The translations under genes were made by a program, and so were the position numbers. 64,000 nt of DNA from Verrucomicrobiia bacterium (GTDB taxonomy: Bacteria; Verrucomicrobiota; Verrucomicrobiia; Limisphaerales; Palsa-1400), in the NCBI GenBank assembly GCA_036272955.1, contig DATAXU010000188.1, positions 7,995-71,994 on the forward strand. Reading direction: 5' to 3'. The notes under the pieces were generated by a model that saw only the letters and a program-made list of their open reading frames with translations, was not told the origin of the DNA and did no database searches. Of this stretch, positions 11,133 to 29,969 are shown piece after piece. Positions within the stretch are counted from its first letter, which is position 1, and each line of letters opens with the position of its first letter.

Positions 11133-13154
11133 ATGGGCCATCTGGATATTCAATGGGCATGGAAACGTCGTCATTCGACCCTGGTGATTCTTTCGCTGTT
11201 CCTCTCACCGTTCGCATACAGCCAGCAACAGGCGCCGGGCGCTCCGAAGTCACCGCCAGCGCAAACTATTGTTTTACCCAAGTCCGTCCCGGATCCAATC
11301 GAACCGTTCAACCGGGCGATGTGGGCTTTCAACAAGGGCCTCCTGACCGGCGTTATCAAGCCGACGGCAAGGGTTTACAGGGCTGTCGTCATCAAGCCCA
11401 TCCGCACGGGAATCGGTAACTTCGGCACGAATCTTACTTACCCGGCGCGGTTGCTCGACAACCTCCTACAGGCCAGATGGGCCGGCGCCCGTGACGAATC
11501 TTACAGGTTCCTTTGCAACACCACCGTCGGCATCGGTGGCTTCTTCGATGTCGCTGACAAATGGAAAATCCCCAGGTCCGACGCCGATTTTGGCCAGACA
11601 TTAGCCAAGTGGGGTTGGCAGCCTCACTTTTTCCTGATGCTGCCGATATTCGGCCCTAGCAACGATCGCGATGCAGTCGGTCTCGCAGTTGACACCGCCG
11701 CCAATCCTCTGATTTATATCTCCCCCTACAACCTCGTCGCGTCCGACCCCCTGACTTATCTCGGCCCTTACACTTACTTCACCTACGTTGTCACATATAA
11801 CAATATGGCCGACACCGTCAATGAAGACGTGCGCTTCATGCAGGCCGAAATGGACCCTTACGCTGAACTCGAATATGCGTGGACATTCGTCAGGGCCAAC
11901 CGCGTCGCCAATTTCCAGGTCAAAGGGAAACAAGACGAAGCCGCATTGGAAACTCTCGAGTCGGTTTTCTTCACCTACAAAAATCCCAATTTTCCAAACC
12001 TCGCCAAGACCCGTTCTGTTCTTATTCCGTCCACCGGCCGCCGTCTCAAATTCACATTCTGGTTGCAGCCGGATCCGGCCCCGGTGGTCTATATAATTCC
12101 CGGTCTGGGTTCCCATCGCCTTGCGGAAACTTCCATGGCCTTGGCGGAGTTGGTTTACAGCAATGGTTACTCCGCCGTAACCGTCAGCAGCCCGTTTAAC
12201 TCCGAATTCATGGAACACGCTTCGACGGCCGCTTTGCCCGCCTATTTGCCCGTCGATGGCGACGACATGCACGTCGCCCTAACCGAAATCGACCACCGCT
12301 TGAATGTGCTCTATCCAAACCGATTGGGGCCGAAAGCTTTGATGGGCTATTCCATGGGCGCTTTCGAGTCGTTGTATATCGCATCGACCCAGTCCACGAA
12401 TCAATCTTCCCTCATAAAATTCGACCGCTACCTCGCCATCGATACCCCCGTGCGGCTGCTTCACGGAATGGGCAAGCTCGACCAATTCTACCAGGCCCCC
12501 CTGCGATGGCCCGCCGCCGAGCGAACCAATGACATGGAAAACACCTTCCTCAAAGTGGCTGACTTGAGCAAACGCACCATGACGCCCCGTGCCACCCTTC
12601 CTTTCAGCGACATCGAGTCCGAGTTTCTTATCGGCGTGGATTTTCGTTTCATCCTTCGCGATATTATTTACAGCAGCCAGCGCCGATACAACGAGCACGT
12701 TCTTCGCCGCCCGCTTTGGAGAGTCAGGCGTGACCCCGTCTATGAGGAAATAATGAAGTACTCCTACGACGACTATTTCAGCAAGTTTGCCGTCCCCTAT
12801 TACAAAGCCTGGGGCATCGCATCGGGAACCGCCGCCGCCTTGGATCACGCAGGCGATTTGCGGACCTACGAAACCGGGATTCGGGCCAATCCCGGCATCC
12901 GCGTCATCGTCAACGACAATGATTTCCTCCTCACGGACCAGGACAGGCACTGGCTTCATGCCACATTCACTCCCGATCAATTGACTGTTTTTCCAAAAGG
13001 CGGCCACCTCGGAAACCTTTTCAATCCAAACGTTCAAAAGACCATATTGGAAGACCTGTCCGAATTGAAGCCCCCTTCCAAACGGAACGAGCCATTGAAA
13101 GTCGCCCCCTCCACTAACGCCCCCGCCGGTACAAAGCCGATCCTGGCCCCATGA
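11133..13154 (+). CDS. MlaA/VacJ-family lipoprotein domain fused to a C-terminal alpha/beta-hydrolase-like domain
   Basis: The N-terminal third matches MlaA (DPIEPFNRAMWAFN..IRTGIGNFGTNLTYPARLLDNLLQ..TTVGIGGFFDVA..DFGQTLAKWG..LMLPIFGPSNDRD). The C-terminal half has a GYSMG nucleophile elbow (Ser codon 12351..12353), VIVNDNDFL and GGHLGN. Confidence 0.75.
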   Translation: MGHLDIQWAWKRRHSTLVILSLFLSPFAYSQQQAPGAPKSPPAQTIVLPKSVPDPIEPFNRAMWAFNKGLLTGVIKPTARVYRAVVIKPIRTGIGNFGTNLTYPARLLDNLLQARWAGARDESYRFLCNTTVGIGGFFDVADKWKIPRSDADFGQTLAKWGWQPHFFLMLPIFGPSNDRDAVGLAVDTAANPLIYISPYNLVASDPLTYLGPYTYFTYVVTYNNMADTVNEDVRFMQAEMDPYAELEYAWTFVRANRVANFQVKGKQDEAALETLESVFFTYKNPNFPNLAKTRSVLIPSTGRRLKFTFWLQPDPAPVVYIIPGLGSHRLAETSMALAELVYSNGYSAVTVSSPFNSEFMEHASTAALPAYLPVDGDDMHVALTEIDHRLNVLYPNRLGPKALMGYSMGAFESLYIASTQSTNQSSLIKFDRYLAIDTPVRLLHGMGKLDQFYQAPLRWPAAERTNDMENTFLKVADLSKRTMTPRATLPFSDIESEFLIGVDFRFILRDIIYSSQRRYNEHVLRRPLWRVRRDPVYEEIMKYSYDDYFSKFAVPYYKAWGIASGTAAALDHAGDLRTYETGIRANPGIRVIVNDNDFLLTDQDRHWLHATFTPDQLTVFPKGGHLGNLFNPNVQKTILEDLSELKPPSKRNEPLKVAPSTNAPAGTKPILAP

Positions 13155-13732
13155 TCAGCCGCGCTCTAATTTTTGTTTTTGCCGCATTCTCACTCCTCCC
13201 CGCCGGGTGTCAAATTCCGAAACCCCCGCCAGAGCCACCCCCCGGAAGCCCCATGGTGTTATCAATCCGAAACAACAGCTACAGCCTTCTCTATCAGCTC
13301 CTGAGCGAGGAAAAAAACGTCGGTCTTCTCCGGTTGGTCAAGCGCGAAAAACCGGACATCAAAGACCTCGTTAAAAAGATCGGCGACACATCGCGCGCCG
13401 ACGCAAAACTGCTCGAAAAACTAGCCGCCGAAGACCCCACGCTCAATCTCCATGAAACTCGACTCCCTCCCGGCGAAGTAGCCACCCGCGCCGCCATCGC
13501 TTCCACCAAGGAAAAAGATCTCCTGTCCGAAAAAGGCGACAAACTCGACTTGACGCTATTGATAACCCAATTCGAAGCTCTGAACTACGGCTGGCACCTC
13601 GCCCGCGTCGCCGGCGACTACGAATCCCAGCCCAACCGCGCTCGCGTCCTCGAAGCCATCAGCGACGACCTGGAAAACCTAAACCGCCAACTCTTCGCCC
13701 TCGTGCTGTCCAAAATAAGTTCGCGGCCTTAG
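13151..13732 (+). CDS. Hypothetical lipoprotein, translationally coupled to the MlaA-fusion gene
   Basis: ATGA start/stop overlap with the upstream gene. Signal plus lipobox: FAAFSLLPAGC. No confident family. Confidence 0.55.
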   Translation: MISRALIFVFAAFSLLPAGCQIPKPPPEPPPGSPMVLSIRNNSYSLLYQLLSEEKNVGLLRLVKREKPDIKDLVKKIGDTSRADAKLLEKLAAEDPTLNLHETRLPPGEVATRAAIASTKEKDLLSEKGDKLDLTLLITQFEALNYGWHLARVAGDYESQPNRARVLEAISDDLENLNRQLFALVLSKISSRP

Positions 13733-19596: not shown

Positions 19597-20139
19597 GTGG
19601 AGCGGGGTGATCCCAAAGCCGCCGGCGAACTGCTCCCCATCGTTTATGAGGAACTCCGCCGTGTGGCTGCGCAAAAAATGGCGCGCGAAGCGGCGGGACA
19701 TACTCTCCAGCCGACTGCGCTGGTTCACGAGGCATGGATGCGGCTGGGCGGAAGTGAGGCTCCGACTTTTCAGAATCGCGCCCATTTCTTTGGCGCGGCG
19801 GCCGAGGCGATGCGCCGCATTCTGATCGAGCACGCGCGGCGAAGATTGGCGAGAAAGCGAGGCGCGGGCGCGGAGGTGGTGGACCTGGATGGACTCGAGA
19901 TTTCCTCTCCGCTGGCCGATGACGACCAGTTGCTCGCGGTGAACGAAGCGCTGGAAAAACTTTCGGCCGTTGATCCGCGCAAGGCGGAACTGGTGAAGCT
20001 GCGTTACTTCGTCGGACTCAATTTCGAGGATACCGCCGCCGCGCTCGGGATCGCGGTGCCCACGGCTAAACAGTGGTGGGCGTACACGCGGTCGTGGCTG
20101 ACGGTTGAGATGGGCGGGGCGGCGCGGGTTTTTAAGTGA
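19597..20139 (+). CDS. ECF sigma factor (Sigma70_ECF / TIGR02999-like)
   Basis: GDPKAAGELLPIVYEELRRVAAQKMAREAAGHTLQPTALVHEAWMRL plus the C-terminal VKLRYFVGLNFEDTAAALGI HTH. The frame is open upstream to a TTG at 19534, and the conserved-looking N-terminus (SEFTQILERVERGD) suggests the true start is upstream of the GTG at 19597. Confidence 0.85.
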   Translation: MERGDPKAAGELLPIVYEELRRVAAQKMAREAAGHTLQPTALVHEAWMRLGGSEAPTFQNRAHFFGAAAEAMRRILIEHARRRLARKRGAGAEVVDLDGLEISSPLADDDQLLAVNEALEKLSAVDPRKAELVKLRYFVGLNFEDTAAALGIAVPTAKQWWAYTRSWLTVEMGGAARVFK

Positions 20140-20231: not shown

Positions 20232-21125
20232 ATGAGCAAATCAAAGTCAGAGATGCAATCACCCCAGGAACGCGAGGAAGCGCTGTTTCAGGCCGCTGTG
20301 CAACTAAATGGCGCTGAACGGGTTGTATTCCTAAATGGCGCCTGCCTTGGCGACGATACCCTGCGGCAACGCCTGGAGGCATTGCTGGCCGCGCATGACG
20401 CGCCGGACGAAACCGCCGCCGTTGAGACGATGAAACTGGAGCCGGCCGACACGGCGGACGAAGCCGTGGGCCAAATGCTTGGGCCTTACAAGCTTTTGGA
20501 GCGCCTTGGCGAAGGCGGTTGCGGCGTGGTCTATGTCGCGGAGCAAACCCGGCCAGTGCGCCGTCGCGTGGCGCTCAAGGTCATCAAGCTGGGGATGGAT
20601 ACCAAGGCCGTTGTCGCGCGCTTCGAGGCGGAACGGCAGGCGCTGGCGATGATGGATCATCCCAATATCGCCAAGGTGCTCGATGCCGGGTCCACGGAGA
20701 CTGGCCGGCCATTCTTTGTGATGGAATTGGTGCGGGGCATCCGGATCACCGAATATTGCGACCAGAATAATCTCACCACACATGACCGGCTCGATTTGTT
20801 CATCAAGATCTGCCACGCCATTCAGCACGCACACCAGAAGGGCATCATTCACCGGGACATCAAGCCGTCCAACATTCTGGTGACGCTGCACGACGGGGTG
20901 CCGGTGCCGAAGGTGATCGACTTCGGGATCGCCAAGGCGACGGAGGGAAGACTCACTGATGCAACGGTTTACACGCAATTGCACCAGTTTATCGGCACAC
21001 CGGCTTATATGAGCCCGGAGCAGGCGGAGATGAGCGGGTTGGACATCGATACGCGGAGCGACATCTATACTGTTTCCAGGAATCATCAGCAGTCATCCCG
21101 ACCAATGTTTACTAAGGTTTCATGA
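20232..21125 (+). pseudogene. 5' fragment of a disrupted Ser/Thr protein kinase gene (N-terminal region plus kinase subdomains I-VIII)
   Basis: [45 protein letters not shown], then TRSDIY. Homology stops after nt 21068 and 18 unrelated residues run to a stop. Confidence 0.85.
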
Positions 21126-21173
21126 AAGTCGTATTGTCCTGAATCATCACGAATTTGCGTGAAAAACACCAAA

Positions 21174-21198
21174 CAGTATCAGATTGCAGTATCAGATT
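21174..21198. repeat. Tandem 12-nt direct repeat (CAGTATCAGATT x2, 13-bp period), iteron-like
   Basis: Read directly: cagtatcagatt g cagtatcagatt. It lies in the 434-bp non-coding left arm of the insertion. Confidence 0.6.
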
Positions 21199-21502
21199 TG
21201 ATGGCGGGTGACGGAAATCTCCTGCCTTGAGTGGAGTCGAAATCTTCCCCCTTCGTGTTCCCGTGTAGTGATTCGGATTGCTAAACTCATTAAGGCCAAG
21301 CCGAATGCCAACACGCGAACACTCCACCCCGACAAATGCCTGGTCGTGTCGTCATTGGCATCGGGATTGCGCCCCTTTCACCCCCGAAACACCGCTTCCA
21401 ATGCCAACACCGCCAGGAGGGGATTTTCTCACGGGCCGATATGAGTCCCGGCGACCCCCGTTGGGATGTCTTGTCCGCGCCATTTATACGTAAGACCACA
21501 AT

Positions 21503-22339
21503 TCAGGGACCGTTAACAAAAGCGGGGTTCCAATCGACATGCCAGTAATAAGTCCAAAGGTCTGGCAATTTTACCAACTCGGCGTGGCCGTCAGCGCAAC
21601 TGAGATTGATTGCGCCGGGCAGCGGTTGGCCCGAGGTGTACGGAACAGAACTGCCAGCGGTCCGCCCGCCGTGTCTCAAGATCGTAGAACAACCCATGCC
21701 TACTCGGACGTACGAATTCGGGTTTTGTTGCCCGGTATAGAGGTCGTTCGCAGCGCGATCTGTTTCTAAAGGAATCATCGTATCATAATTCTGATCGTAA
21801 ACCAATGGCGTTTGCGCAGGTTTCAGAACCGAGGAAAATTTCGGGAAAAAGTACCTAGCTAGGCTGCCTCCTCCCAAAGCTGGCGGTGCCTTCGTCATGA
21901 AATCTGTAAACCACCCGTTGAATCCATAGCTCCCAACCACAGGAAGAACGCCACCAGTGCCGCCTACCACCCATGCAAGGTCAGCAGCCCCGCCTCCTTG
22001 ATTTAGCGGTAATAAAGGCTGGCGCGTTGAGGGACAAAGTCTAACTTGGTCAAACACTCCGTAATTAGTAAACGCCTCTTCCCAGAATTCCGGAATCGTC
22101 GGATCGTAGGTTGGGAAATTTGGCACGTTATTTGGGATACCACTGGGATTATCGTTCAAATACATTAAACCCGCGACCGTGATTTGTTTAACGTTATTGA
22201 GACAATTGATCTGCCGAGCCTGCATTTTCGCTTGGGCCAAGGCAGGAAGCAATAGCGCGGCCAGAATAGCAATGATGCCAACGACCACCAGTAGTTCCAC
22301 TAATGTAAAACCACGCCATGACCTGACTTTTCCGCGCAT
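21503..22339 (-). CDS. Prepilin-type N-terminal cleavage/methylation domain protein (pseudopilin-like, H-X9-DG family)
   Basis: [26 protein letters not shown] is a class III signal. The C-terminus [18 protein letters not shown] matches the H-X9-DG-type motif common in the PVC group. The likely start is Met9 of ORF 21503..22363. Confidence 0.75.
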
Positions 22340-22395
22340 TGTCACTTCAATAAAATATATCACCTGATCGTCAAGACCTCAAGCGCCTCGAACCG

Positions 22396-25101
22396 CTAAT
22401 TTGAGCCATTAGTCCAAGTGTAAGTATTGGTCGTAATCAGGACAAAGCCTTGGCCCACATTAAGCATGGGGACACCACTGGACCATGTACCGGAACTATA
22501 CGTGTGCGAAATATAAGCCTGTGTGTTGGTGCTCCAAACCTGGACGATGTCACCGTTCTGCGGCAGGTACCCTGTCACGTTCGTTATCGCTCCCGCCATT
22601 GGGAACGTGGAACTCAAATAGTTTGTTTTGCTCGTAATGTGAAATACCTGCTGTTCCTGGACAAGTCCAGCAAACGAAGCCGTGAACGAATGGCCCGTAC
22701 CATTACTGACCAGCACGCTTGACCCCGGTATCAACGTCATGTCTCCACCCGAAAGCCACGTGGGAAAGTGAGCGTCGTTGTAGCTATCTGCATTGAAGCT
22801 GGTTCCGTTCCACTTAAACACTTGCGTTGGGTCCTGAGTGGTACTCCAAGGGTTCACCAGTGTGAATAGCGCACTCAATGTGTTCATAGGCCAGCATTGA
22901 AATGCCTCTGGCCCGCCTGCATAGAACTCTAAATATTCCACTTCGTCATCCACTTGATAAAGCTGATTGGCGACAAGATTCGTTCCAGGCGCAATAGTTA
23001 AATTTACAAACCCAATTATTCTTGAACAACAATTGCTATTGCACAGTTGATAAAACCGTTGCGACCCCCCGGTGACACTGGTGTCTGTAAAGGTATTGGT
23101 GCCTGACGCATTCGTGCTTCCAGCAGCATTTAACGGCAAATTTGACGCAATCTCAACCCAATTTGATAGATTTGTGGAAGAATAGACATTCCACAGGGTG
23201 TTCGCCTGTCCGACAATTCTAAACGTGAACTCACCGCTAATACTATTTGTTTCTTGCGATAAAAAGGGCGGATTGCACGTTGTCCCAACTGGGACAACAG
23301 TCCCCTGTTGACCCGTGTGGCTCGGATTCTGTTGATACATCGGCCAAGGCGCGTTTGTCTCAAGCGACCCAGACCCCCAAAGAGCGTACAAGGTGCCATT
23401 GTCGCAACCGAAAATAATCGTTCCGTCAGCAGCAATTAGCGGACTGGAGAGGATTGGAGACCCCGTATAAAATGTCCAAGCTTGAACCCCGTTCGTCAGG
23501 GCGTAAAGGCCCCCATCGTCACAGCCAAAATACTCCCAGCCGCCAGTGCCTAACGCCACGGATGTGCTCACATAGTTGTCGTCAAGCCCAAACATCCACC
23601 GTTGAGTACCGTCAGAATTGATGCAAAAAACATCTCCCGCATCTACGAAATAATCCTCAGAATAAGAGCTTCCAATTCCAAAATAAATTTCGTTGTCAGG
23701 GCCAATTGTTGGCCCGGACTGAATTACTCCAAAGCTTCCATCAGGTTGAACAACATCAAAAATCCACATCAATGAACCGTCTGGGGCCACTTTATACAAA
23801 TAATCTGAATAGGACCCTATAACAATGTTGCCATCAGAATCAATAGCGGGCGAGGAGTCCGGTTCATCGTCACCTGCCACTGGCAAGAACCATTTTAAGT
23901 TGCCACTGCTGGAAATGGCATAAAGTCTGTGACCTTCCGCCAAAAAATACACGGTTCCGTCAGCGGCTACTACGGGGTTGCAGTCGATGTCCCCCGCGTT
24001 TCCGTAAAAGAGGTCCTGTGGTTGAAACATCCAATTGGTTGCCCCGCTGATCGAGTTAAGAGAGGTAAGTCCTGTAATAGGATTGAATACCCGCCCCGCC
24101 AATGTTTCATCGGTCGTCACATATACCTCTCCATTAGTGCCCAGCGACGGCGTGGAATAAATGGCGCTGAAGTTTCCTAAATTGAACACGGCATTTGTCG
24201 TACCATCGGGATTGATTACGTATAAATGTCCATCGGTAGAACCGACAAATATCTGGCCGCTGGGACTCACGATTGGGGAACTCGTCATTTCCGCTGGTTG
24301 TGGAAACACGCCGTTACTCGCAAAGAGGCTGCCGTTAAAAATACGATCACTCCATTTCACAATCCCGGTTAGAAAGTCAACCGCATAAAGCGTGTTGCTG
24401 GCCGTTGCCATGTACACTGTTTGACCGTCAGGTGACAATGCGGGGGAAGCATCCATTCCGTAACCAAACGCATCTTGGTTTGTGGCAGTGGCCGGATTGT
24501 ACAGTTGCACAGCCCAACGCACCGTTCTCGGCACAGCCTGCAAAGCTCGAAAGAAAACGCCTTCATACGAAGTGTCAATCAGAACAGGCTGCGCGAGCGA
24601 AACCGTATTCGTTGCCAGTAACGATTGATTCGTATACCACGGCCCAAGAAGATTGGTTGCAATTTCCAGCACGTAAGGGAGTCCGGGAATTGTGTTCGAC
24701 AGCGTCACCTGCACTTCGTTTGTCGAAATTTGTGTGATGAATAGCCAAAGGTTCGTGCCCGGTTCGAGAAGGTTATACGTAACGGTGGTGCCGCCGCCAC
24801 CGCCAGTTCCGACGTACGGGGTAGGTGGGCCGCTATCATCCGGTTCCAAACCACCGCTTGTGCGGCCCATTGGCGTGATCGACCCGTCAGGGTTATCCCA
24901 TCCAAATCCGATGCGATAAGCGGAGCCATCCCATTGGATGTAATTGGCCGTTCCCGGCGGAGCAGGTGGAGGCACAATGTCCTGGGCCACTACTGAAACT
25001 CCGATGCCTAACGTAGCGAGGAGGAATAGGAATTGATCGAAGCGAAACAGTGAAGCCGGAACATTCTGGGCCAGTCTTTCGCGGATTGTCGAGTTGGTCA
25101 T
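22396..25101 (-). CDS. Secreted PQQ-like (BamB-type) beta-propeller repeat protein, about 900 aa
   Basis: The likely start is Met68 (MTNSTIRERL..FLFLLATLGIGVSVVAQD signal). At least six repeats of the G..(V/I)Y.....G.LYA(V/I/L)...G...W type. Two copies of the recurrent module (..YVLEIATNLLGPW..VFFRAL, ..YSSTNLSNW..RFYQL). Confidence 0.75.
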   Translation of the reverse strand: MTNSTIRERLAQNVPASLFRFDQFLFLLATLGIGVSVVAQDIVPPPAPPGTANYIQWDGSAYRIGFGWDNPDGSITPMGRTSGGLEPDDSGPPTPYVGTGGGGGTTVTYNLLEPGTNLWLFITQISTNEVQVTLSNTIPGLPYVLEIATNLLGPWYTNQSLLATNTVSLAQPVLIDTSYEGVFFRALQAVPRTVRWAVQLYNPATATNQDAFGYGMDASPALSPDGQTVYMATASNTLYAVDFLTGIVKWSDRIFNGSLFASNGVFPQPAEMTSSPIVSPSGQIFVGSTDGHLYVINPDGTTNAVFNLGNFSAIYSTPSLGTNGEVYVTTDETLAGRVFNPITGLTSLNSISGATNWMFQPQDLFYGNAGDIDCNPVVAADGTVYFLAEGHRLYAISSSGNLKWFLPVAGDDEPDSSPAIDSDGNIVIGSYSDYLYKVAPDGSLMWIFDVVQPDGSFGVIQSGPTIGPDNEIYFGIGSSYSEDYFVDAGDVFCINSDGTQRWMFGLDDNYVSTSVALGTGGWEYFGCDDGGLYALTNGVQAWTFYTGSPILSSPLIAADGTIIFGCDNGTLYALWGSGSLETNAPWPMYQQNPSHTGQQGTVVPVGTTCNPPFLSQETNSISGEFTFRIVGQANTLWNVYSSTNLSNWVEIASNLPLNAAGSTNASGTNTFTDTSVTGGSQRFYQLCNSNCCSRIIGFVNLTIAPGTNLVANQLYQVDDEVEYLEFYAGGPEAFQCWPMNTLSALFTLVNPWSTTQDPTQVFKWNGTSFNADSYNDAHFPTWLSGGDMTLIPGSSVLVSNGTGHSFTASFAGLVQEQQVFHITSKTNYLSSTFPMAGAITNVTGYLPQNGDIVQVWSTNTQAYISHTYSSGTWSSGVPMLNVGQGFVLITTNTYTWTNGSN

Positions 25102-25537
25102 ATGGGGAATATTTCTTGGCCGATTTTTCTCACAGACGCCTGAAAGGCGCACGCCCCGTGCTCCCCCAGGAGGCAACCCGCTAAGGCGCCTTACAGAAAA
25201 AACACAAGACGGCGCCCATTGGGGCGTCGCCTTGGCCTCGTTTCTGTATTTGCCTTTAAAAAAAATTAGCGGGTTTTTCCTGTGGCTTTGAGTAGCGGCC
25301 AACGCTACGCAAAATCTAAATTATTTAAAGAACTGCCTTTTCTTTTGACCAAATCACCTTTCAAATGCAAGGCATATCTCTCGTTTTGTCCGCAAATCCC
25401 CGGACGGCTCTTAGAATGTGATCTTTAAATGACGTTTTCACGTAGTTTCGCAAGCGAGGGATCAGACGGAGCTTCTGCCCTCCGAATCCGCGCGGCTTAA
25501 ATTTCGGGACAGTTATTAGTGTATTAAACAAGGTTAA

Positions 25538-25580
25538 GGGCGGCGAGGGGCCGGGCTAAAGCCCGGCCCGCCCGCCGCCC
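25538..25580 (-). terminator. GC-rich ~19-bp stem / 4-nt loop hairpin 13 nt downstream of the 109-aa ORF (terminator or rolling-circle origin candidate)
   Basis: gggcggcgaggggccgggc taaa gcccggcccgcccgccgccc. The arms are complementary apart from a small internal mismatch/bulge. Confidence 0.45.
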
Positions 25581-25592
25581 CTTCACTCTCCG

Positions 25593-25922
25593 TCATGCCA
25601 CCATTTCGGCCTCTTTGATGAGGAAACGCTTGTCCCGTTCTTCCCATCGCATCACTTTCAACGTGACTTGCTGGAATTCCGGCAACTTCGGAAACGCGAC
25701 GACGTTTTCGCCGTCGAGCTTAACCTGGCCGTCTTTCGGGTCGTGGAACACTTCCCACACCGCCATTCCCGGTTGCAACGCCATTTCATGCCGAACGATG
25801 ACGAATACGCCCGTTCCGTCTTTGCGCTTGTGCGCTTTGGCGGCACTCGACATGACCACGCCGCGCACGAACAAGCCGTTCAGCTTGTCGTTGTGAGCAG
25901 GTTGTTTTGCATTATCAGCCAT
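25593..25922 (-). CDS. Hypothetical 109-aa protein of the inserted element (speculatively an OB-fold/ssDNA-binding accessory protein)
   Basis: Internal ATG (MADNAKQP..) preceded by AAGGAGGG 8 nt upstream. It overlaps the 3' end of the Rep gene by 43 nt. No recognised family. Confidence 0.5.
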   Translation of the reverse strand: MADNAKQPAHNDKLNGLFVRGVVMSSAAKAHKRKDGTGVFVIVRHEMALQPGMAVWEVFHDPKDGQVKLDGENVVAFPKLPEFQQVTLKVMRWEERDKRFLIKEAEMVA

Positions 25923-26764
25923 AACGATAATCCCTCCTTTCTTGGTATGATTATTTCCCCGCTGCCTTTGTAGCGACCATCCAGCGCAGCGGACAAAACC
26001 AGATGATCGAAAATCTCCCGATACGGAATGCGAAATAGAACCGTCCGAACCGTGCCATTTAATCGAATCGCCGCCATGCGAGCCCATCGCCGGAATCGTT
26101 CACCGATTGTGTAGGAGGCCCGCGGTTCCTTTTTCTCTGTTGATTCGGCTTCCGGTTCTGGACGGTACGCAGGGCGGTTGGCTGGTTTGAGAAAACCCTT
26201 TGTGCTTTGAAATACTCGCAGTCGATTCCGTTCTTTCAGCCATTCCGGCAATTCGTCAGGCTTCGTGACGTATTTCAGCAGATAATGAAAATCCCGGTTC
26301 GTGATTCGCTGGACTTTCACCCACCCCAAACCCCACAACTCCGACAGCAGTTCCTTAGGCAGAAAACGGCGCGTCAGGAAAATGACGTGGTAATGCACCC
26401 ATCCGCTTTCGTGGAATTCAACCTTGACGCAATACGGCGCGTCTATGGTGTAAGTCTTGCCTTCGTGCTCGACACCGTGCCGGAGTTGAAAGAAAACTTT
26501 GCGCAACCAATCCCGGCTGTCGTCAAATGCGCTTTCCTCGTTGGCGTAAAGTTTCGGGTCCAGTGTGAAGGTCAGAAACAGCTTTCCGCTTACATCCGGC
26601 AGGCGATCCCAAAGTCGAGCCAGAACTTTGTAAATCCCGACCGGGTGAAACCATGAAGCGGGGACGAATTCCTTTATCGTTTGCTCACATCCTGGAGGTT
26701 TAATCAAAGTCGCGCCGCTCACAGTGGCCGCCCCGACGCACCCTGCGGCCACTATTCGCCCCAC
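25880..26764 (-). CDS. HUH-superfamily rolling-circle replication initiator (phiX174 gpA / Microviridae VP4-like, Y2 type)
   Basis: Motif I FLTFTL (aa 63-68), motif II HYHVIF (nt 26378..26395), and motif III YLLKYVTK with two Tyr spaced YxxxY (nt 26261..26284, compare phiX174 YVAKYVNK). 294 aa with a GTG start 25 nt from the right junction. Confidence 0.75.
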   Translation of the reverse strand: MGRIVAAGCVGAATVSGATLIKPPGCEQTIKEFVPASWFHPVGIYKVLARLWDRLPDVSGKLFLTFTLDPKLYANEESAFDDSRDWLRKVFFQLRHGVEHEGKTYTIDAPYCVKVEFHESGWVHYHVIFLTRRFLPKELLSELWGLGWVKVQRITNRDFHYLLKYVTKPDELPEWLKERNRLRVFQSTKGFLKPANRPAYRPEPEAESTEKKEPRASYTIGERFRRWARMAAIRLNGTVRTVLFRIPYREIFDHLVLSAALDGRYKGSGEIIIPRKEGLSLWLIMQNNLLTTTS

Positions 26765-26789
26765 CGTCGCGACTGATGGAGACTCATAA

Positions 26790-29700
26790 TCGCTGGGTGT
26801 GTTGCTCTACGAACTGCTCGCCGGCAGCACGCCGTTTGACGCAAACGAGTTGATGTCGCAAGGCATTGACCAGATGCGCAAGACGATTCGGGAGCAGGAA
26901 CCGCCTCGCTCGAGCACGCGCCTTGCGACCCTCGGAGCCGCCGAACTGACGACCACAGCCAAGCGTCGCTCCGCCGATACTTCGAGGCTGATGCACCAGC
27001 TCAAGGGCGACCTGGACTGGATCGTGATGAAGTGCCTGGAGAAAGACCGCATGCGGCGCTACGAGACGGCCAACGGACTTGCCGCCGACTTGAAACGGCA
27101 CCTGAACAATGAAACGGTGATCGCCCGGCCGCCGAGCGCCGCCTACAAATTTCAAAAGGCGTTCCGACGTAACAAGCTGGTGTTTACCGCCGCGGGAGCG
27201 GTGACGGCGGCATTGGTGTTGGGCATTATTGCCAGCACCTGGCAATCGATTCGGGCCAACCATGCCAAACAACAGGCCCTGGCAGCCGAGGCGCGAGCCA
27301 TCCAGGCGCAAGCCGATGAAACGAAACAGCGGCAACTTGCCGAGAAGGAGGCGCGGCAGGCCGAGCAGGCGAAGGAGGTCGCCGATCGAGAATCCATTGC
27401 GGCACGGCGGACGGCGGCCGAGTCTGATGCGCATTACCTTCTCCATGAAGGGCTTCTACCCGACGCGCTCGCCAAAGCGACCGAGGCGTTCAAACTGGGC
27501 GGGGCGTGGGAAGACGGGCTTCTAATTAACGATATTGCCGAGACGGCGCGGCAAAACTGGGTATTATCCGCCCGTGTTCCGTTAAGCGAACCGGCGAACG
27601 TGGCCTGTGTGACACGATTTAAAGACAGACCGTGCCTGGTTATGTCCGTAGCCAGCGGACTTCGTGTGATAGATGCGCTTAACGGCGCCATGCTTGGGTC
27701 AGTGCCTTTCTCGGAACATGTATGGCAATTATTCCAAGGTGTGGATTCGAACACCGTAGTGGCGGTTTCTGATGCATCGGTTTCGCTCTTTTCGCTTCCA
27801 TCGCTCACGGTCGCGGCAAAAGAAGAGCTGCCGGCCCCGTTGGGCTTCGCGGCGGCAAATGGCACCAGCCTCATTCTTTTGCTCAACAACCACGATGTGC
27901 ATATACTTGACCTTTCCAACGTGTCGGAAGTGGCATCCTTCAATTGGGACACGAATCCGGGGACGAAAAAATTTCAAGCGCCGCGTCATGCGTGCGTTTC
28001 GCCCGACGGCAAACTTGCGCTGCTTCATGGCGGGAGTTATCTCGACCCCGTGGTGGTTTGGGACCGACGAAGCGATCCGCCGACATTTACGGCGCGGGAC
28101 ATCCCGATGCAGGAGTTCAAATTTATTGACAACAAACGTTTCGCGACGTGGGAGCTAGTAGGCAACGGAGAAACAGAGACGCCGGACAATATCAACGTCT
28201 ATGACGCGGAGCACACGCCGGTGGCCGTCATGTCGCAGTCCATTCCCAACGATAACATCAAGGGGCACGTGGAGTTCCAGGCTTGGAGCGCAAAAGAGTG
28301 GGGTTTCGAAACGGATTTTCCGATTGTCGGCGGCATCGGGCCGTCCGGTCTTGGGTTCAAGGGGATGGACACCACCGGGGAGTTTCAAGGGGATTTCAGT
28401 TTCAGTGATCGCTACGCCAATCTGCTGCCGTCGGATGCGGACACGCTGAAATTTCTTGCGGCCGGCATGGACAAAGGGGTGCTGGCGCTTCAATCGGCGA
28501 GCAACCTTTTGATTTTCCAGTTGAGCTGGCTGCACTGGAGCGGCGCGACCCGGGACTACTGCGCGACAGCCTGCTCCAACGGCCTTCTTTACATGAGCCG
28601 AGCCATCAAACCGGCGCCGATACTCACGTTTATTCCCTTTGACCCGCGGCAAAAGCCCGCGCGCTTCAGCCTGCAATGGCCGTCGGACAGCAAATGGCTC
28701 CCGTGGGCCGTCGCCGCCACGCCGGACGCCTCCACCGTCGCGGTCGTTGGACAGGAGACGGATTCCGGCAACAGGTTCAACGCGCACTATGGTCGCGTCC
28801 GCGCCCTGATTTACCGTACGGGTAGCTTGACGGACGGACCTTCGGCCTGGCCCATCCAAAACGCCTTCCAGATTGATGCGCCTGATTGTCTTTCGTTCAC
28901 GCCGCGTTTTTTGGCGCTGGATACTGAGGGTCACGCGTTGCTGTACTGGAATTCCACCAGCACGGTCAACCGATATGATTGCCGCGATGGCAAACCTCTC
29001 GGGACTCTCGAACTGGGACTTGTCAGCGCGCGCTCGCGCGATGGGCGGCGCGTTGCCTCAGTCTCCCCCGACGGGCGGATCCGTGTCTATGACTTGTCCA
29101 CCGGCGACGTGGTTCTTGACCAGCAGAGCAAGCCGGCCGCGGGAATCTGTTTGTCCCCGGAAGGCTCGCGCCTTGTGGCGTCCCAGGAGGGGATGCTCAA
29201 AGAGTACGACGTGGCGTCGGGGCGTGTGCTTTCGTCGGTTCCCTCCAAATTGTTGCCGCTGGCCTGCCCTGCACACGGAAGCCACTTGCTTGCGTTTCAG
29301 CCGGACACGACTGGACTTGGAGGCTCGGTCGTTTTGGCGGACACGGGGGATGCGCGGGTTGCCGCCGTGCTGAATCGGGCGGGAACCAGTTTTACGCCGG
29401 CCTATTTCAGCGATTCCGGGAATCAAATTGCCATTATTAGCAGGTTTGATACCAAGGTTGTTCGCTCGCTGCGGCCGGAAGAAATTCCAGCAGTGTTGAA
29501 CACGCCCCTTCCTGAGACGACCGAGCTTCAACCTTTGGCTCCTGCGACTATTGCGACAACGGCCGTTTCGGCAACCGCGGTTGGATCAGAAGACGTTTTC
29601 GATGCGGGAAACATTTCGGGGCTGCAATCGCACATGGGGGACCTGGTGACGATTCAAGGGAGCGTTCGGGATGTCAACCTGGTCACTGCCGGGAATGCGG

Positions 29701-29969
29701 CCAATATTTACTTTGAAACGGCGGGGACAACGCCGGTCCAGGTGTGGGTGCCGTGGGATCCGTTTCCGAAATTGAAAACCCGCCTTGGCAAAGACCTTGA
29801 GGCGGCGTTGCATGGGCGCACGATTAAAGCCACGGGACGGCTGTCGCTTTACCGGGGAAACATTGAACTTACTTTGTCTGATGCGGGTAAATTCGTGATT
29901 GTCTCTCCAGGTGTAGCGATCGGGACATTCACCACGAAGGCCACGAAGGAAGACGAAAAGAAAAATTGA
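26790..29969 (+). pseudogene. 3' fragment of the disrupted Ser/Thr kinase gene (subdomains IX-XI, TM segment, large extracytoplasmic region)
   Basis: SLGVLLYELLAGSTPFD..DLDWIVMKCLEKDRMRRYETANGLAADL, then the TM segment LVFTAAGAVTAALVLGIIA and about 850 aa. A TAA lies immediately upstream at 26787..26789. An internal GTG at 26799 could still permit expression of a kinase-less protein. Confidence 0.85.

Follow-up and report, generated by a model that had tools for sequence, protein, structure and literature searches.

Which kind of element carries a virus-like replication initiator when no virus can be recognised around it? The question is raised by a gene for a rolling-circle initiator (Rep) in a stretch of 64,000 nucleotides (nt) from a Verrucomicrobiia bacterium (Palsa-1400; assembly GCA_036272955.1, contig DATAXU010000188.1, positions 7,995 to 71,994, forward strand), which we call the window. 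The original prediction, made from the DNA letters, described the protein as similar to phiX174 gpA and microvirus VP4, and saw either a microvirus-derived Rep in a non-viral integrative element or a very divergent virus. It is highly probable, in our assessment, that the gene belongs to a stranded, integrase-less derivative of a tRNA-targeting element that combines a tyrosine integrase with a Rep, and that this element was inserted by an integrase at a secondary site within a Ser/Thr kinase gene. For the window the result is mostly clarifying, the "virus-like Rep without a virus" being the replication gene of a stranded element that disrupted one Ser/Thr kinase among many, and the interest stems mainly from the family, less from the window copy: the Rep marks out a family of elements of 4-12 kb that is abundant in Verrucomicrobiota but undescribed. 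Coordinates of all features are collected in Table 1.

The Rep open reading frame and its three rolling-circle motifs, in the order and at the positions originally given, proved exact by counting from the GTG start, and their residues are conserved. Among 39 close homologues, out of 470 proteins returned by a database search (the top 120 at 70-88% identity), T65, T67, H126, Y161, K164, Y165 and K168 are invariant and H124 nearly so, while among more distant representatives, 74 in all, with 23-47% identity and drawn from the 735 clusters (E <= 1e-3) of an exhaustive profile search, T65, T67, E116, H124, H126 and K168 are invariant, with Y161, K164 and Y165 at least 90% conserved. Because the catalytic residues are invariant or conserved across homologues, the motifs are not a product of chance. 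PF23343 (REP_ORF2-G2P) is the only Pfam family above threshold for the window Rep (47.4 bits, gathering cut-off 27.8, E = 2.4e-12, amino acids (aa) 62-169), and all 74 distant representatives also match it. By its motifs and profile matches, the window Rep is to be regarded as a bona fide two-tyrosine HUH rolling-circle initiator. Sequence searches of the PDB with the Rep found no relatives, and profile searches gave only E~1 matches to HUH Rep domains; the AlphaFold2 model was poor (predicted local distance difference test, pLDDT, 55) and with Foldseek against the PDB nothing reached E <= 0.001, HUH Rep domains showing up only faintly.

PF23343 also covers the gokushovirus-type VP4 of Bajarodmic virus 301 (1.5e-20), gp31 of the tailed Clostridium phage PhiS63 (1.8e-16) and a "Rep protein" of an Enterococcus plasmid (1.2e-22) encoded two genes from a site-specific integrase; judged by its members, it is a generic two-tyrosine HUH catalytic core. 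In hhalign comparisons, the broad family profile matched gokushovirus-type VP4 with a probability of 96.9% (E = 1.9e-10, catalytic core only) and the Enterococcus Rep with a probability of 97.1% (E = 7.4e-11), the window Rep being ~29% identical to the latter over the core, and tblastn of the Rep against Microviridae VP4 gave E values of about 1e-3 to 1. The likeness to VP4 that had been proposed holds in so far as, on these scores, Microviridae VP4 of the gokushovirus type are the nearest Rep relatives among phage proteins, but an origin from a microvirus is unsupported because the PF23343 core is equally close in the integrase-adjacent Enterococcus Rep and occurs also in a tailed phage. As far as profiles can tell, the Rep is no closer to microviruses than to the Reps of integrase-bearing cellular elements. 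The proposed kinship with phiX174 gpA turned out to be weak, the phiX174-type family PF05840 reaching 11 bits against a cut-off of 31.4 and hhalign with phiX174 gpA a probability of 3.9%. The window Rep is like the Microviridae initiators (gokushovirus-type VP4 and phiX174 gpA) in its three motifs, their order and the YxxxY tyrosines; unlike in Microviridae, capsid, pilot and scaffold genes were not found, the family is absent from IMG/VR, and a C-terminal domain of 80 aa is not covered by the VP4 match. PF23343 or VP4-like Reps should therefore be read with caution, as they are no evidence of Microviridae. RepSA (PF20199) gave no match to the window Rep in the Pfam scan.

The Pfam name "ORF2/G2P", together with the small protein encoded downstream of Rep, might suggest the remnant of a filamentous (inovirus or plectrovirus) prophage. 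This reading deserves hardly any credence, as hhalign of the family profile detected no similarity to M13 gpII (probability 0.2%), Zot/pI ATPase and coat-like genes were not found, a pI-like ATPase is absent from the complete relatives among the loci examined, and PF23343 is found in microviruses, a tailed phage and plasmids as well.

We retrieved 87 related loci (L-numbers) and mapped the neighbouring genes by tblastn; Pfam, PHROGs, NCBIfam and PADLOC served as protein libraries. The family has a consistent order, namely a tRNA gene, a tyrosine integrase (int), a protein that we call X, a helix-turn-helix (HTH) protein, Rep, the small protein p109, a conserved non-coding block, variable cargo and a conserved non-coding arm. 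The integrase (~380 aa) is of the tyrosine type, PF00589; X (~255 aa) has no match in the four libraries; the HTH protein (~80 aa) is HTH_17/MerR-like and matches PHROG 66, "excisionase and transcriptional regulator". For p109, 284 homologues were found (74-92% identity), all without a Pfam domain; a low-confidence AlphaFold2 model (pLDDT 46), with which Foldseek matched nothing, predicts an all-beta protein. The integrase lies upstream of Rep in 42 of the 44 loci with sufficient upstream sequence, and ARAGORN, run on 54 loci, placed a tRNA gene (for Ser, Arg, Met, Leu or Phe) 80-200 nt upstream of int in 38 of them. The targets comprise at least eight anticodon species (Ser-CGA, Ser-GGA, Ser-GCT, Arg-TCT, Arg-CCT, Met, Leu-TAA, Leu-TAG and Phe). 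Eight elements, from 4.1 kb (L008) to 12.1 kb (L042), are flanked by perfect direct repeats of 23-41 bp, which correspond to the tRNA from position 1 to about position 40, its 5' half, reaching to the anticodon loop. Since this half is repeated and the element abuts the 5' end of the tRNA, the element must contribute this half to the reconstituted tRNA gene, and presumably its promoter as well. L008 is the smallest complete member, is free of cargo and consists only of int, X, HTH, Rep and p109. The family comprises at least 470 protein clusters at 90% identity and at least 155 metagenome loci, was seen only in Verrucomicrobiota metagenome-assembled genomes and in peat, bog, soil and lake metagenomes, and is annotated throughout as hypothetical; we found no publication describing it. 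Scans with the single Rep protein found 3 loci in the genome collection and 0 in the viral collection, and neither a single protein nor a profile of the family found a match in the 2.9 million contigs of IMG/VR. The size of 5.7 kb, once thought to fit Microviridae, is coincidental, as complete relatives range from 4.1 to 12 kb with variable cargo.

In the window, the ends of the element can be set from the host gene. The reading frame of a Ser/Thr kinase stops at ...DIY (21068) and restarts at SLGVLLYELL (26790), and the repaired protein aligns without gaps to intact homologues, so the element occupies exactly the segment in between. An identical insertion, with an identical p109, is found in two other metagenome contigs (L091 and L092; JGI 3300036790 and 3300036820), and therefore the insertion is fixed, or at least common, in the source population. 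The gene callers in these two assemblies place the Rep start 14 codons further in (280 aa).

The junctions indicate how the element arrived. On the Rep strand, host ...CCCAGCGA is followed directly by TTATGAGTCTCC... of the element, and the 17-mer on the attL side matches the anticodon arm of tRNA-Met (AGCGATTATGAGTCGCC) at 16 of 17 positions. In L008, the attL at tRNA-Met reads CCAAGCGA TTATGAG TCGCC, so that the core in the window is nearly intact (TTATGAG TCTCC against TCGCC in L008). The uninterrupted site in the kinase gene would be AGCGA-ATAGATG-TCGCT (CCCAGCGAATAGATGTCGCTCC; intact kinase sequence GACATCTATTCGCTGGG), and the stem-loop of the tRNA-Met in L045 is AGCGA-TTATGAG-TCGCT: both 5-nt half-sites are identical to those of the kinase site, at equal spacing, with 3 of the 7 spacer bases shared. 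By simple arithmetic, the chance of such a match at a predetermined position is ~1e-6. The window element is not flanked by an att repeat; what is present is a pseudo-attB with both half-sites and, at one junction, a reconstituted arm matching at 16/17. In addition, the spacer at attL is of the element type (TTATGAG), and the one at attR of the host type (ATAGATG). Tyrosine recombinases exchange strands on either side of an overlap, and a non-identical overlap leaves differing spacers on one daughter strand. Inferring from this mechanism, the differing spacers fit strand exchange around a non-identical 7-bp overlap. At the other end, the left arm and its counterparts in L008, L009, L006 and L014 are homologous right to the tip; it terminates together with those of L008, L009 and L006 and has the terminal sequence ...GGAAACAGT. 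Direct or inverted repeats beyond chance were absent from the ends of the window element. Because the junctions carry the tRNA-Met att core of the family tyrosine integrase, we conclude that this integrase, and not Rep, put the element into a secondary site of the kinase gene that mimics the anticodon stem-loop of tRNA-Met. It is a clean case of an integrase using protein-coding sequence that imitates such a stem-loop.

The opposite view, that Rep itself drove the insertion by IS91-, ISCR- or Helitron-like transposition or by Rep-mediated integration, could draw on the absence of an integrase, the position of rep at one end, the lack of a target-site duplication and the two tyrosines shared with IS91 transposases. 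We regard it as next to impossible, since the tyrosine-integrase att core is present at both junctions, the target mimics the tRNA-Met stem-loop, relatives are flanked by tRNA repeats beside an integrase, and the putative origin lies inside the element, ~1.25 kb away from its rep-side end. The IS91/ISCR alternative named in the original prediction also failed when checked, as the IS91-type transposase families (Y2_Tnp, PF04986, and Zn_Tnp_IS91) are absent from the Pfam output for the window Rep at E <= 1.

If an integrase inserted the element, it is no longer there: int, X and HTH are found nowhere in the 64-kb window, and the P' arm repeats adjoining int are gone. The window Rep also lacks the conserved N-terminal peptide MKxTWGNPxRxVSQGGG (first ~17 codons) and the AAGGAGGTG box, which is ribosome-binding. 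The position of the break is given by a 77-nt segment at the rep 5' end, which is 94.8% identical to positions 9985-10061 of L008, inside its rep 5' region. In L008 this segment lies downstream of int, X, HTH and an in-frame leader MKPTWGNPIRNVSQGGG that contains the AAGGAGGTG box, and in the window it comes immediately after TTATGAGTC. As the window core thus runs straight into the 77-nt segment, ~2.3 kb is missing, from the P' side of the att core to about codon 17 of rep. It had been noted early that Rep starts 25 nt from the junction, which is correct, and its promoter had been sought in host DNA or in the left arm; since the integrase, X and HTH block precedes Rep in nearly all relatives, a 5' truncation replaces that explanation. 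A Rep frame running across the junction of the circle, with the ends joined, was considered and rejected, as there is an in-frame TGA 6 codons into the left arm. A promoter scan upstream of the window rep gave no promoter-like site, and overall counts were no better than in shuffles. The window Rep is probably silent, since no promoter-like site was found upstream and the 3' fragment of the kinase gene diverges from rep, and the copy is probably immobile, given that Rep has no evident promoter. Because the integrase, the excisionase and the att repeats are missing, the copy is better described as a truncated derivative than as a complete family member. Most likely, as the simplest account, int, X and HTH were lost after the insertion, which stranded the element.

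The loss could also have preceded the insertion. The window copy would then be a non-autonomous mini-element that had lost int, X and HTH (e.g., by aberrant excision via a secondary site in the rep 5' region), was mobilised in trans by the integrase of a complete sibling at another place in the genome, and expresses Rep from an unrecognised promoter. In its favour, the Rep core and p109 frames are intact, the P arm (including the tandem CAGTATCAGATT repeats) and a nearly complete core are kept, and L004, whose Rep is the closest to that of the window (88%), has no upstream integrase, nor have L016 and L078. We nevertheless consider it unlikely: among the 44 informative loci, int is missing only in the L004/L005 contig, and L004 looks like another remnant, its p109 being truncated after 54 codons and its upstream module being a different one; moreover, the P' arm repeats, the Rep N-terminus and the ribosome-binding box are gone, no sibling element was found in the 64-kb window, and neither was a promoter-like site.

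What the truncated copy has kept includes a candidate origin of replication. Directly after p109 lies a GC-rich hairpin, and directly 3' of the hairpin an invariant 34-mer, CCCTTAACCTTGTTTAATACACTAATAACTGTCC. In the family the 34-mer (CCCTTAACCTTGTTTAATAcTCTAATAACTGTCC, also written CCCTTAACCTTGTTTAATAC(A/T)CTAATAACTGTCC) shows 88-100% identity at 33 of 34 columns over 52 distinct sequences, while the proteins are only ~70% identical. Each of these 52 sequences was folded separately, because RNAalifold on a MAFFT alignment, which is not structure-aware, missed the long stem; the hairpin was recovered in 52/52, with 17-22 pairs and a free energy (dG) of -37 to -52 kcal/mol, a few folds gaining a short outer stem for up to 24 pairs in total. 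There are 47 distinct hairpin sequences, whose inner stems vary between subgroups while the pairing is kept. Since this non-coding sequence is more conserved than the adjacent genes, we take the hairpin and 34-mer for a cis-acting protein site, and its conservation makes it the probable binding and nick site of Rep. Rfam gave only sub-threshold hairpin noise in the region, with no family at gathering score. A likeness of the 34-mer to the phiX174 origin was looked at and rejected as not significant, since several other places in the phiX genome score just as well as that origin.

Taken together, the following course may be proposed. In complete members, the tyrosine integrase, probably aided by the excisionase-like HTH protein, would move the element in and out of a tRNA gene, with the crossover in the anticodon loop and duplication of the 5' half of the tRNA. 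After excision, Rep would introduce a nick into the circle at the AT-rich 34-mer next to the GC hairpin and then drive rolling-circle replication, Tyr161 and Tyr165 alternating by analogy with phiX174 gpA. In the lineage of the window, the family integrase would have inserted an element into the kinase site AGCGA-7 nt-TCGCT, and int, X, HTH, the first ~17 Rep codons and the ribosome-binding box would have been lost later, leaving the Rep core, p109, the putative origin and the cargo. The motifs, the gene order of the family, the att repeats, the junction sequences and the truncation are directly observed; the nick site, the order of events, the loss of activity and replication as an episome are inferred within this scheme.

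Several observations do not sit easily with this account. The left arm is 8 nt shorter than in L008:11780-11806 and L014:13715-13740 (8 and not 16 nt after TCCTG), which implies either a non-textbook reaction or a later small deletion; an imprecise event, a later microdeletion and natural variation are all possible causes. Both reading frames, that of Rep and that of p109, are undamaged, and three samples share the identical insertion; this fits a recent event, but it fits continuing function as well. No excised circular form was seen, and none of the fetched contigs has terminal overlaps. The hairpin could be a transcription terminator, and, with structure models as poor as these, X and p109 could have a structural role.

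The last point leads back to the virus. According to a further reading, the family would be a very divergent single-stranded DNA (ssDNA) virus or a phage satellite, with X, p109 and cargo as unrecognisable structural or packaging proteins and Rep as a true relative of VP4. Microviridae VP4 are indeed its nearest phage proteins, Rep followed by a small all-beta protein recalls gene II and gene V of filamentous phages (M13 annotation), and the layout of int, HTH, replication genes and defence cargo is like that of tycheposons and satellites resembling phage-inducible chromosomal islands (PICI; bioRxiv 10.1101/2020.12.28.424599). It seems very unlikely to us all the same, as the search of IMG/VR was empty, there are no circular contigs, the minimal complete element L008 holds nothing beyond its five genes, X matches nothing in the four libraries, and the integrase-adjacent Enterococcus Rep is as close as VP4. 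Capsid, pilot, scaffold and packaging-type families were found neither in the window cargo nor in the core of the relatives with the Pfam, PHROGs and NCBIfam sequence profiles. The original observation that recognisable capsid, pilot, scaffold and Zot genes are absent is hence confirmed at the level of sequence profiles, and its reading as a Rep in a non-viral integrative element gains support. A related and bolder idea is that the module of Rep, p109 and origin represents an unrecognised satellite- or virus-like class which leaves the cell as ssDNA, by means of a helper virus or vesicles, with p109 binding or coating the ssDNA; we think it quite unlikely, and if it were true, soil and peat bacteria would be exchanging compact defence systems, a Cas9 locus among them, with the family as a widespread carrier.

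The kind of element is one already known, namely integrative elements with an integrase and a rolling-circle Rep, and neither a cryptic microvirus nor a Rep-driven transposon. Reps with described integrative behaviour, among which the original prediction had allowed the protein might fall, are found in kind in elements of Actinobacteria and Firmicutes (PMC2440964, PMC5357655). In the IMEs (integrative and mobilizable elements) of Firmicutes, the tyrosine integrase is always accompanied by a protein related to rolling-circle initiators, in the classes Rel_PHA00330 (defined by the viral PHA00330 domain), Rel_PF01719 and Rel_PF02407, and the Rep-like protein is taken to be a relaxase (Coluzzi et al. 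2017, PMC5357655). The Verrucomicrobiota elements resemble them in being small and integrated, with a tyrosine integrase and an HUH Rep-like protein and no conjugation pore, and the plasmid-borne "Rep protein + site-specific integrase" module of Enterococcus is an example of the IME type whose Rep also belongs to PF23343. They differ in their host, in the new partners X and p109, and in that a TcpA/FtsK-like coupling protein was not found, no translocase or coupling protein of this kind being recognised in the conserved core of the family. The integrative and conjugative elements of actinomycetes (AICEs), such as pSAM2, also target tRNA genes, combine a tyrosine integrase and excisionase with rolling-circle RepSA and replicate after excision, and both remnants and secondary-site insertions are documented; they are 9-24 kb in size, have FtsK-like transfer genes, and the tRNA's 3' end is overlapped by their attB (te Poele et al. 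2008, PMC2440964). In comparison, the Verrucomicrobiota elements have 4-12 kb, no recognised transfer gene, a Rep from a family other than that of RepSA (PF20199) and a duplicated 5' half of the tRNA, which is unusual and the opposite of the AICE arrangement. Tycheposons and PICI-like satellites (Hackl et al., bioRxiv 10.1101/2020.12.28.424599) are similar in overall layout, and degenerate remnants are common among them; judging by the gene labels in the preprint, which makes no statement that HUH Reps are lacking, their replication modules have primases and helicases, and their hosts are marine cyanobacteria and other plankton. Unlike in satellites, packaging genes were not seen in the Verrucomicrobiota family. 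With its integrase, att sites, Rep and putative origin, the family offers a compact and well-delimited mobile-element chassis for a phylum with almost no genetic tools.

Table 1. Positions of the features discussed, in the window unless another locus is named.
Feature	Position	Strand	Remarks
Host Ser/Thr kinase gene, 5' part	20232..21068	+	cut after ...TRSDIY (kinase subdomain IX); Pfam Pkinase E = 2.8e-34
attR-like junction	21057..21073	-	reads ACAGT (element arm end), then ATAGATG (host 7-nt spacer) and TCGCT (host half-site)
Inserted element, 5,721 bp	21069..26789	-	all genes on minus strand; GC 0.46-0.55 vs flanks 0.56-0.62
Conserved non-coding att-proximal arm (P arm)	21069..21502	-	blastn 73-82% identity to arms of L006/L010, L008, L009, L014
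Tandem CAGTATCAGATT x2	21174..21198	+	candidate arm-type integrase binding site; paired at both ends in relatives
Cargo, 286-aa protein	21503..22363	-	prepilin-type N-terminal methylation motif (Pfam N_methyl 1.2e-5, NCBIfam TIGR02532); weak DUF1559 match
Cargo, 968-aa protein	22396..25302	-	PQQ/BamB-like beta-propeller, N-terminal hydrophobic segment
Invariant 34-mer	25507..25540	-	candidate Rep recognition/nick site (double-strand origin)
GC-rich hairpin	25536..25582	-	21 bp, one-base bulge
p109, 109-aa protein	25593..25922	-	overlaps rep end; directly after Rep in 64/64 loci
Rep, two-tyrosine HUH rolling-circle initiator (by motifs)	25880..26764	-	GTG start, 294 aa; 5'-truncated vs family
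Motif III, YLLKYVTK, aa 161-168	26261..26284	-	Y161, Y165, K168; in both Rep alignments
HUH motif, HYHVIF, aa 124-129	26378..26395	-	H124 and H126 invariant in broad alignment
Motif I, FLTFTL, aa 63-68	26561..26578	-	T65 and T67 invariant
77-nt segment at rep 5' end	26704..26780	-	9-bp inverted repeat (26723-26731 / 26745-26753)
attL-like junction	26778..26794	-	reads AGCGA (host), then TTATGAGTCTCC (element)
Host Ser/Thr kinase gene, 3' part	26790..29969	+	SLGVLLYELL..., transmembrane segment, WD40-like repeats
att repeats in L008	7683-7722 and 11804-11843		also in L009, L010, L014, L023, L040, L042, L087
CRISPR array in L042	~12022-13700		visible as periodic translated motif
cas2 in L042	13826-14362		
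cas1 in L042	14359-15393		
cas9 in L042	15341-18562		1073 aa

The candidate integrase binding motif CAGTATCAGATT occurs in complete relatives (L008, L010, L014, L040, L042 and L087) both in the arm and just upstream of int. Between the putative origin and this arm lies the cargo slot, which naturally gathers defence systems. In L042, a 12-kb element at tRNA-Leu, the slot holds a complete type II CRISPR-Cas locus (L042:12022-18562), in L040 (11333-13202) PDC-M31 A and B (E = 2.9e-118 and 1.2e-75), in L014 (11408-12415) a TIR-TM protein (1.1e-63), in L001 (4452-5122) a MazE/PIN toxin-antitoxin pair, in L023 a YfhO-like membrane protein and in L009 a DnaJ/Sel1 protein. The slot thus often carries anti-phage defence genes, the systems of L040, L014 and L001 being candidates. 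The two cargo proteins of the window are absent from the 87 related loci; neither had a match in PADLOC or in a capsid or morphogenesis family, and the 968-aa protein matches Pfam PQQ_2 (6.7e-17), Beta-prop_ACSF4 (1.3e-25) and PHROG 8401, "beta-propeller repeat protein".

Some members show signs of rearrangement. The arm of L009 (13300-13570), an element at tRNA-Leu, retains an att core of the tRNA-Ser type (AATTTCGAGTCAGGTGCCTTCAACG), followed by extra sequence and the Leu repeat, which suggests module swapping or tandem integration among members that target different tRNAs. In L003 (3998-5029), L018, L048, L066, L070 and L074, the opposite strand encodes a second tyrosine recombinase, a divergent one, immediately downstream of the 34-mer and its hairpin. 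In L004:9660-10050, L016:1032-1270 and L078:1201-1410, another module replaces the HTH gene upstream of Rep, consisting of a reverse-complemented tRNA 3' end (TGGAGCGGGCGAAGGGAATCGAACC...) and then an open reading frame of 76-106 aa, with no integrase nearby; this sub-lineage has the appearance of additional remnants or of a variant whose integration module is another one.

The rep 5' region of most members (L006:2420-2500, L012, L013, L003 and L087) has a nucleotide-conserved box, GGGGAAACCCG..AAGAAACGTAAGCCAAGGAGGTGGGG, upstream of the Rep core, followed by a variable segment with strong inverted repeats, e.g., GGCGTTTCGG...CCGAAACGCC, and in the window AGTGGCCGC...GCGGCCACT; some of these variable segments hold a sequence like the T-arm of a tRNA, GGGGATTCGAACC. 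For this region, a role as regulatory leader, as single-strand origin or as secondary att-like site is conceivable.

On the side of the host, the interrupted kinase belongs to a very large paralogous family of Verrucomicrobiota (~8000 matches at E <= 1e-50), and the loss of one copy probably costs the host little. An open reading frame of 180 aa resembling a sigma factor of the extracytoplasmic function (ECF) type is found at 19597-20139, directly upstream of the interrupted kinase gene.

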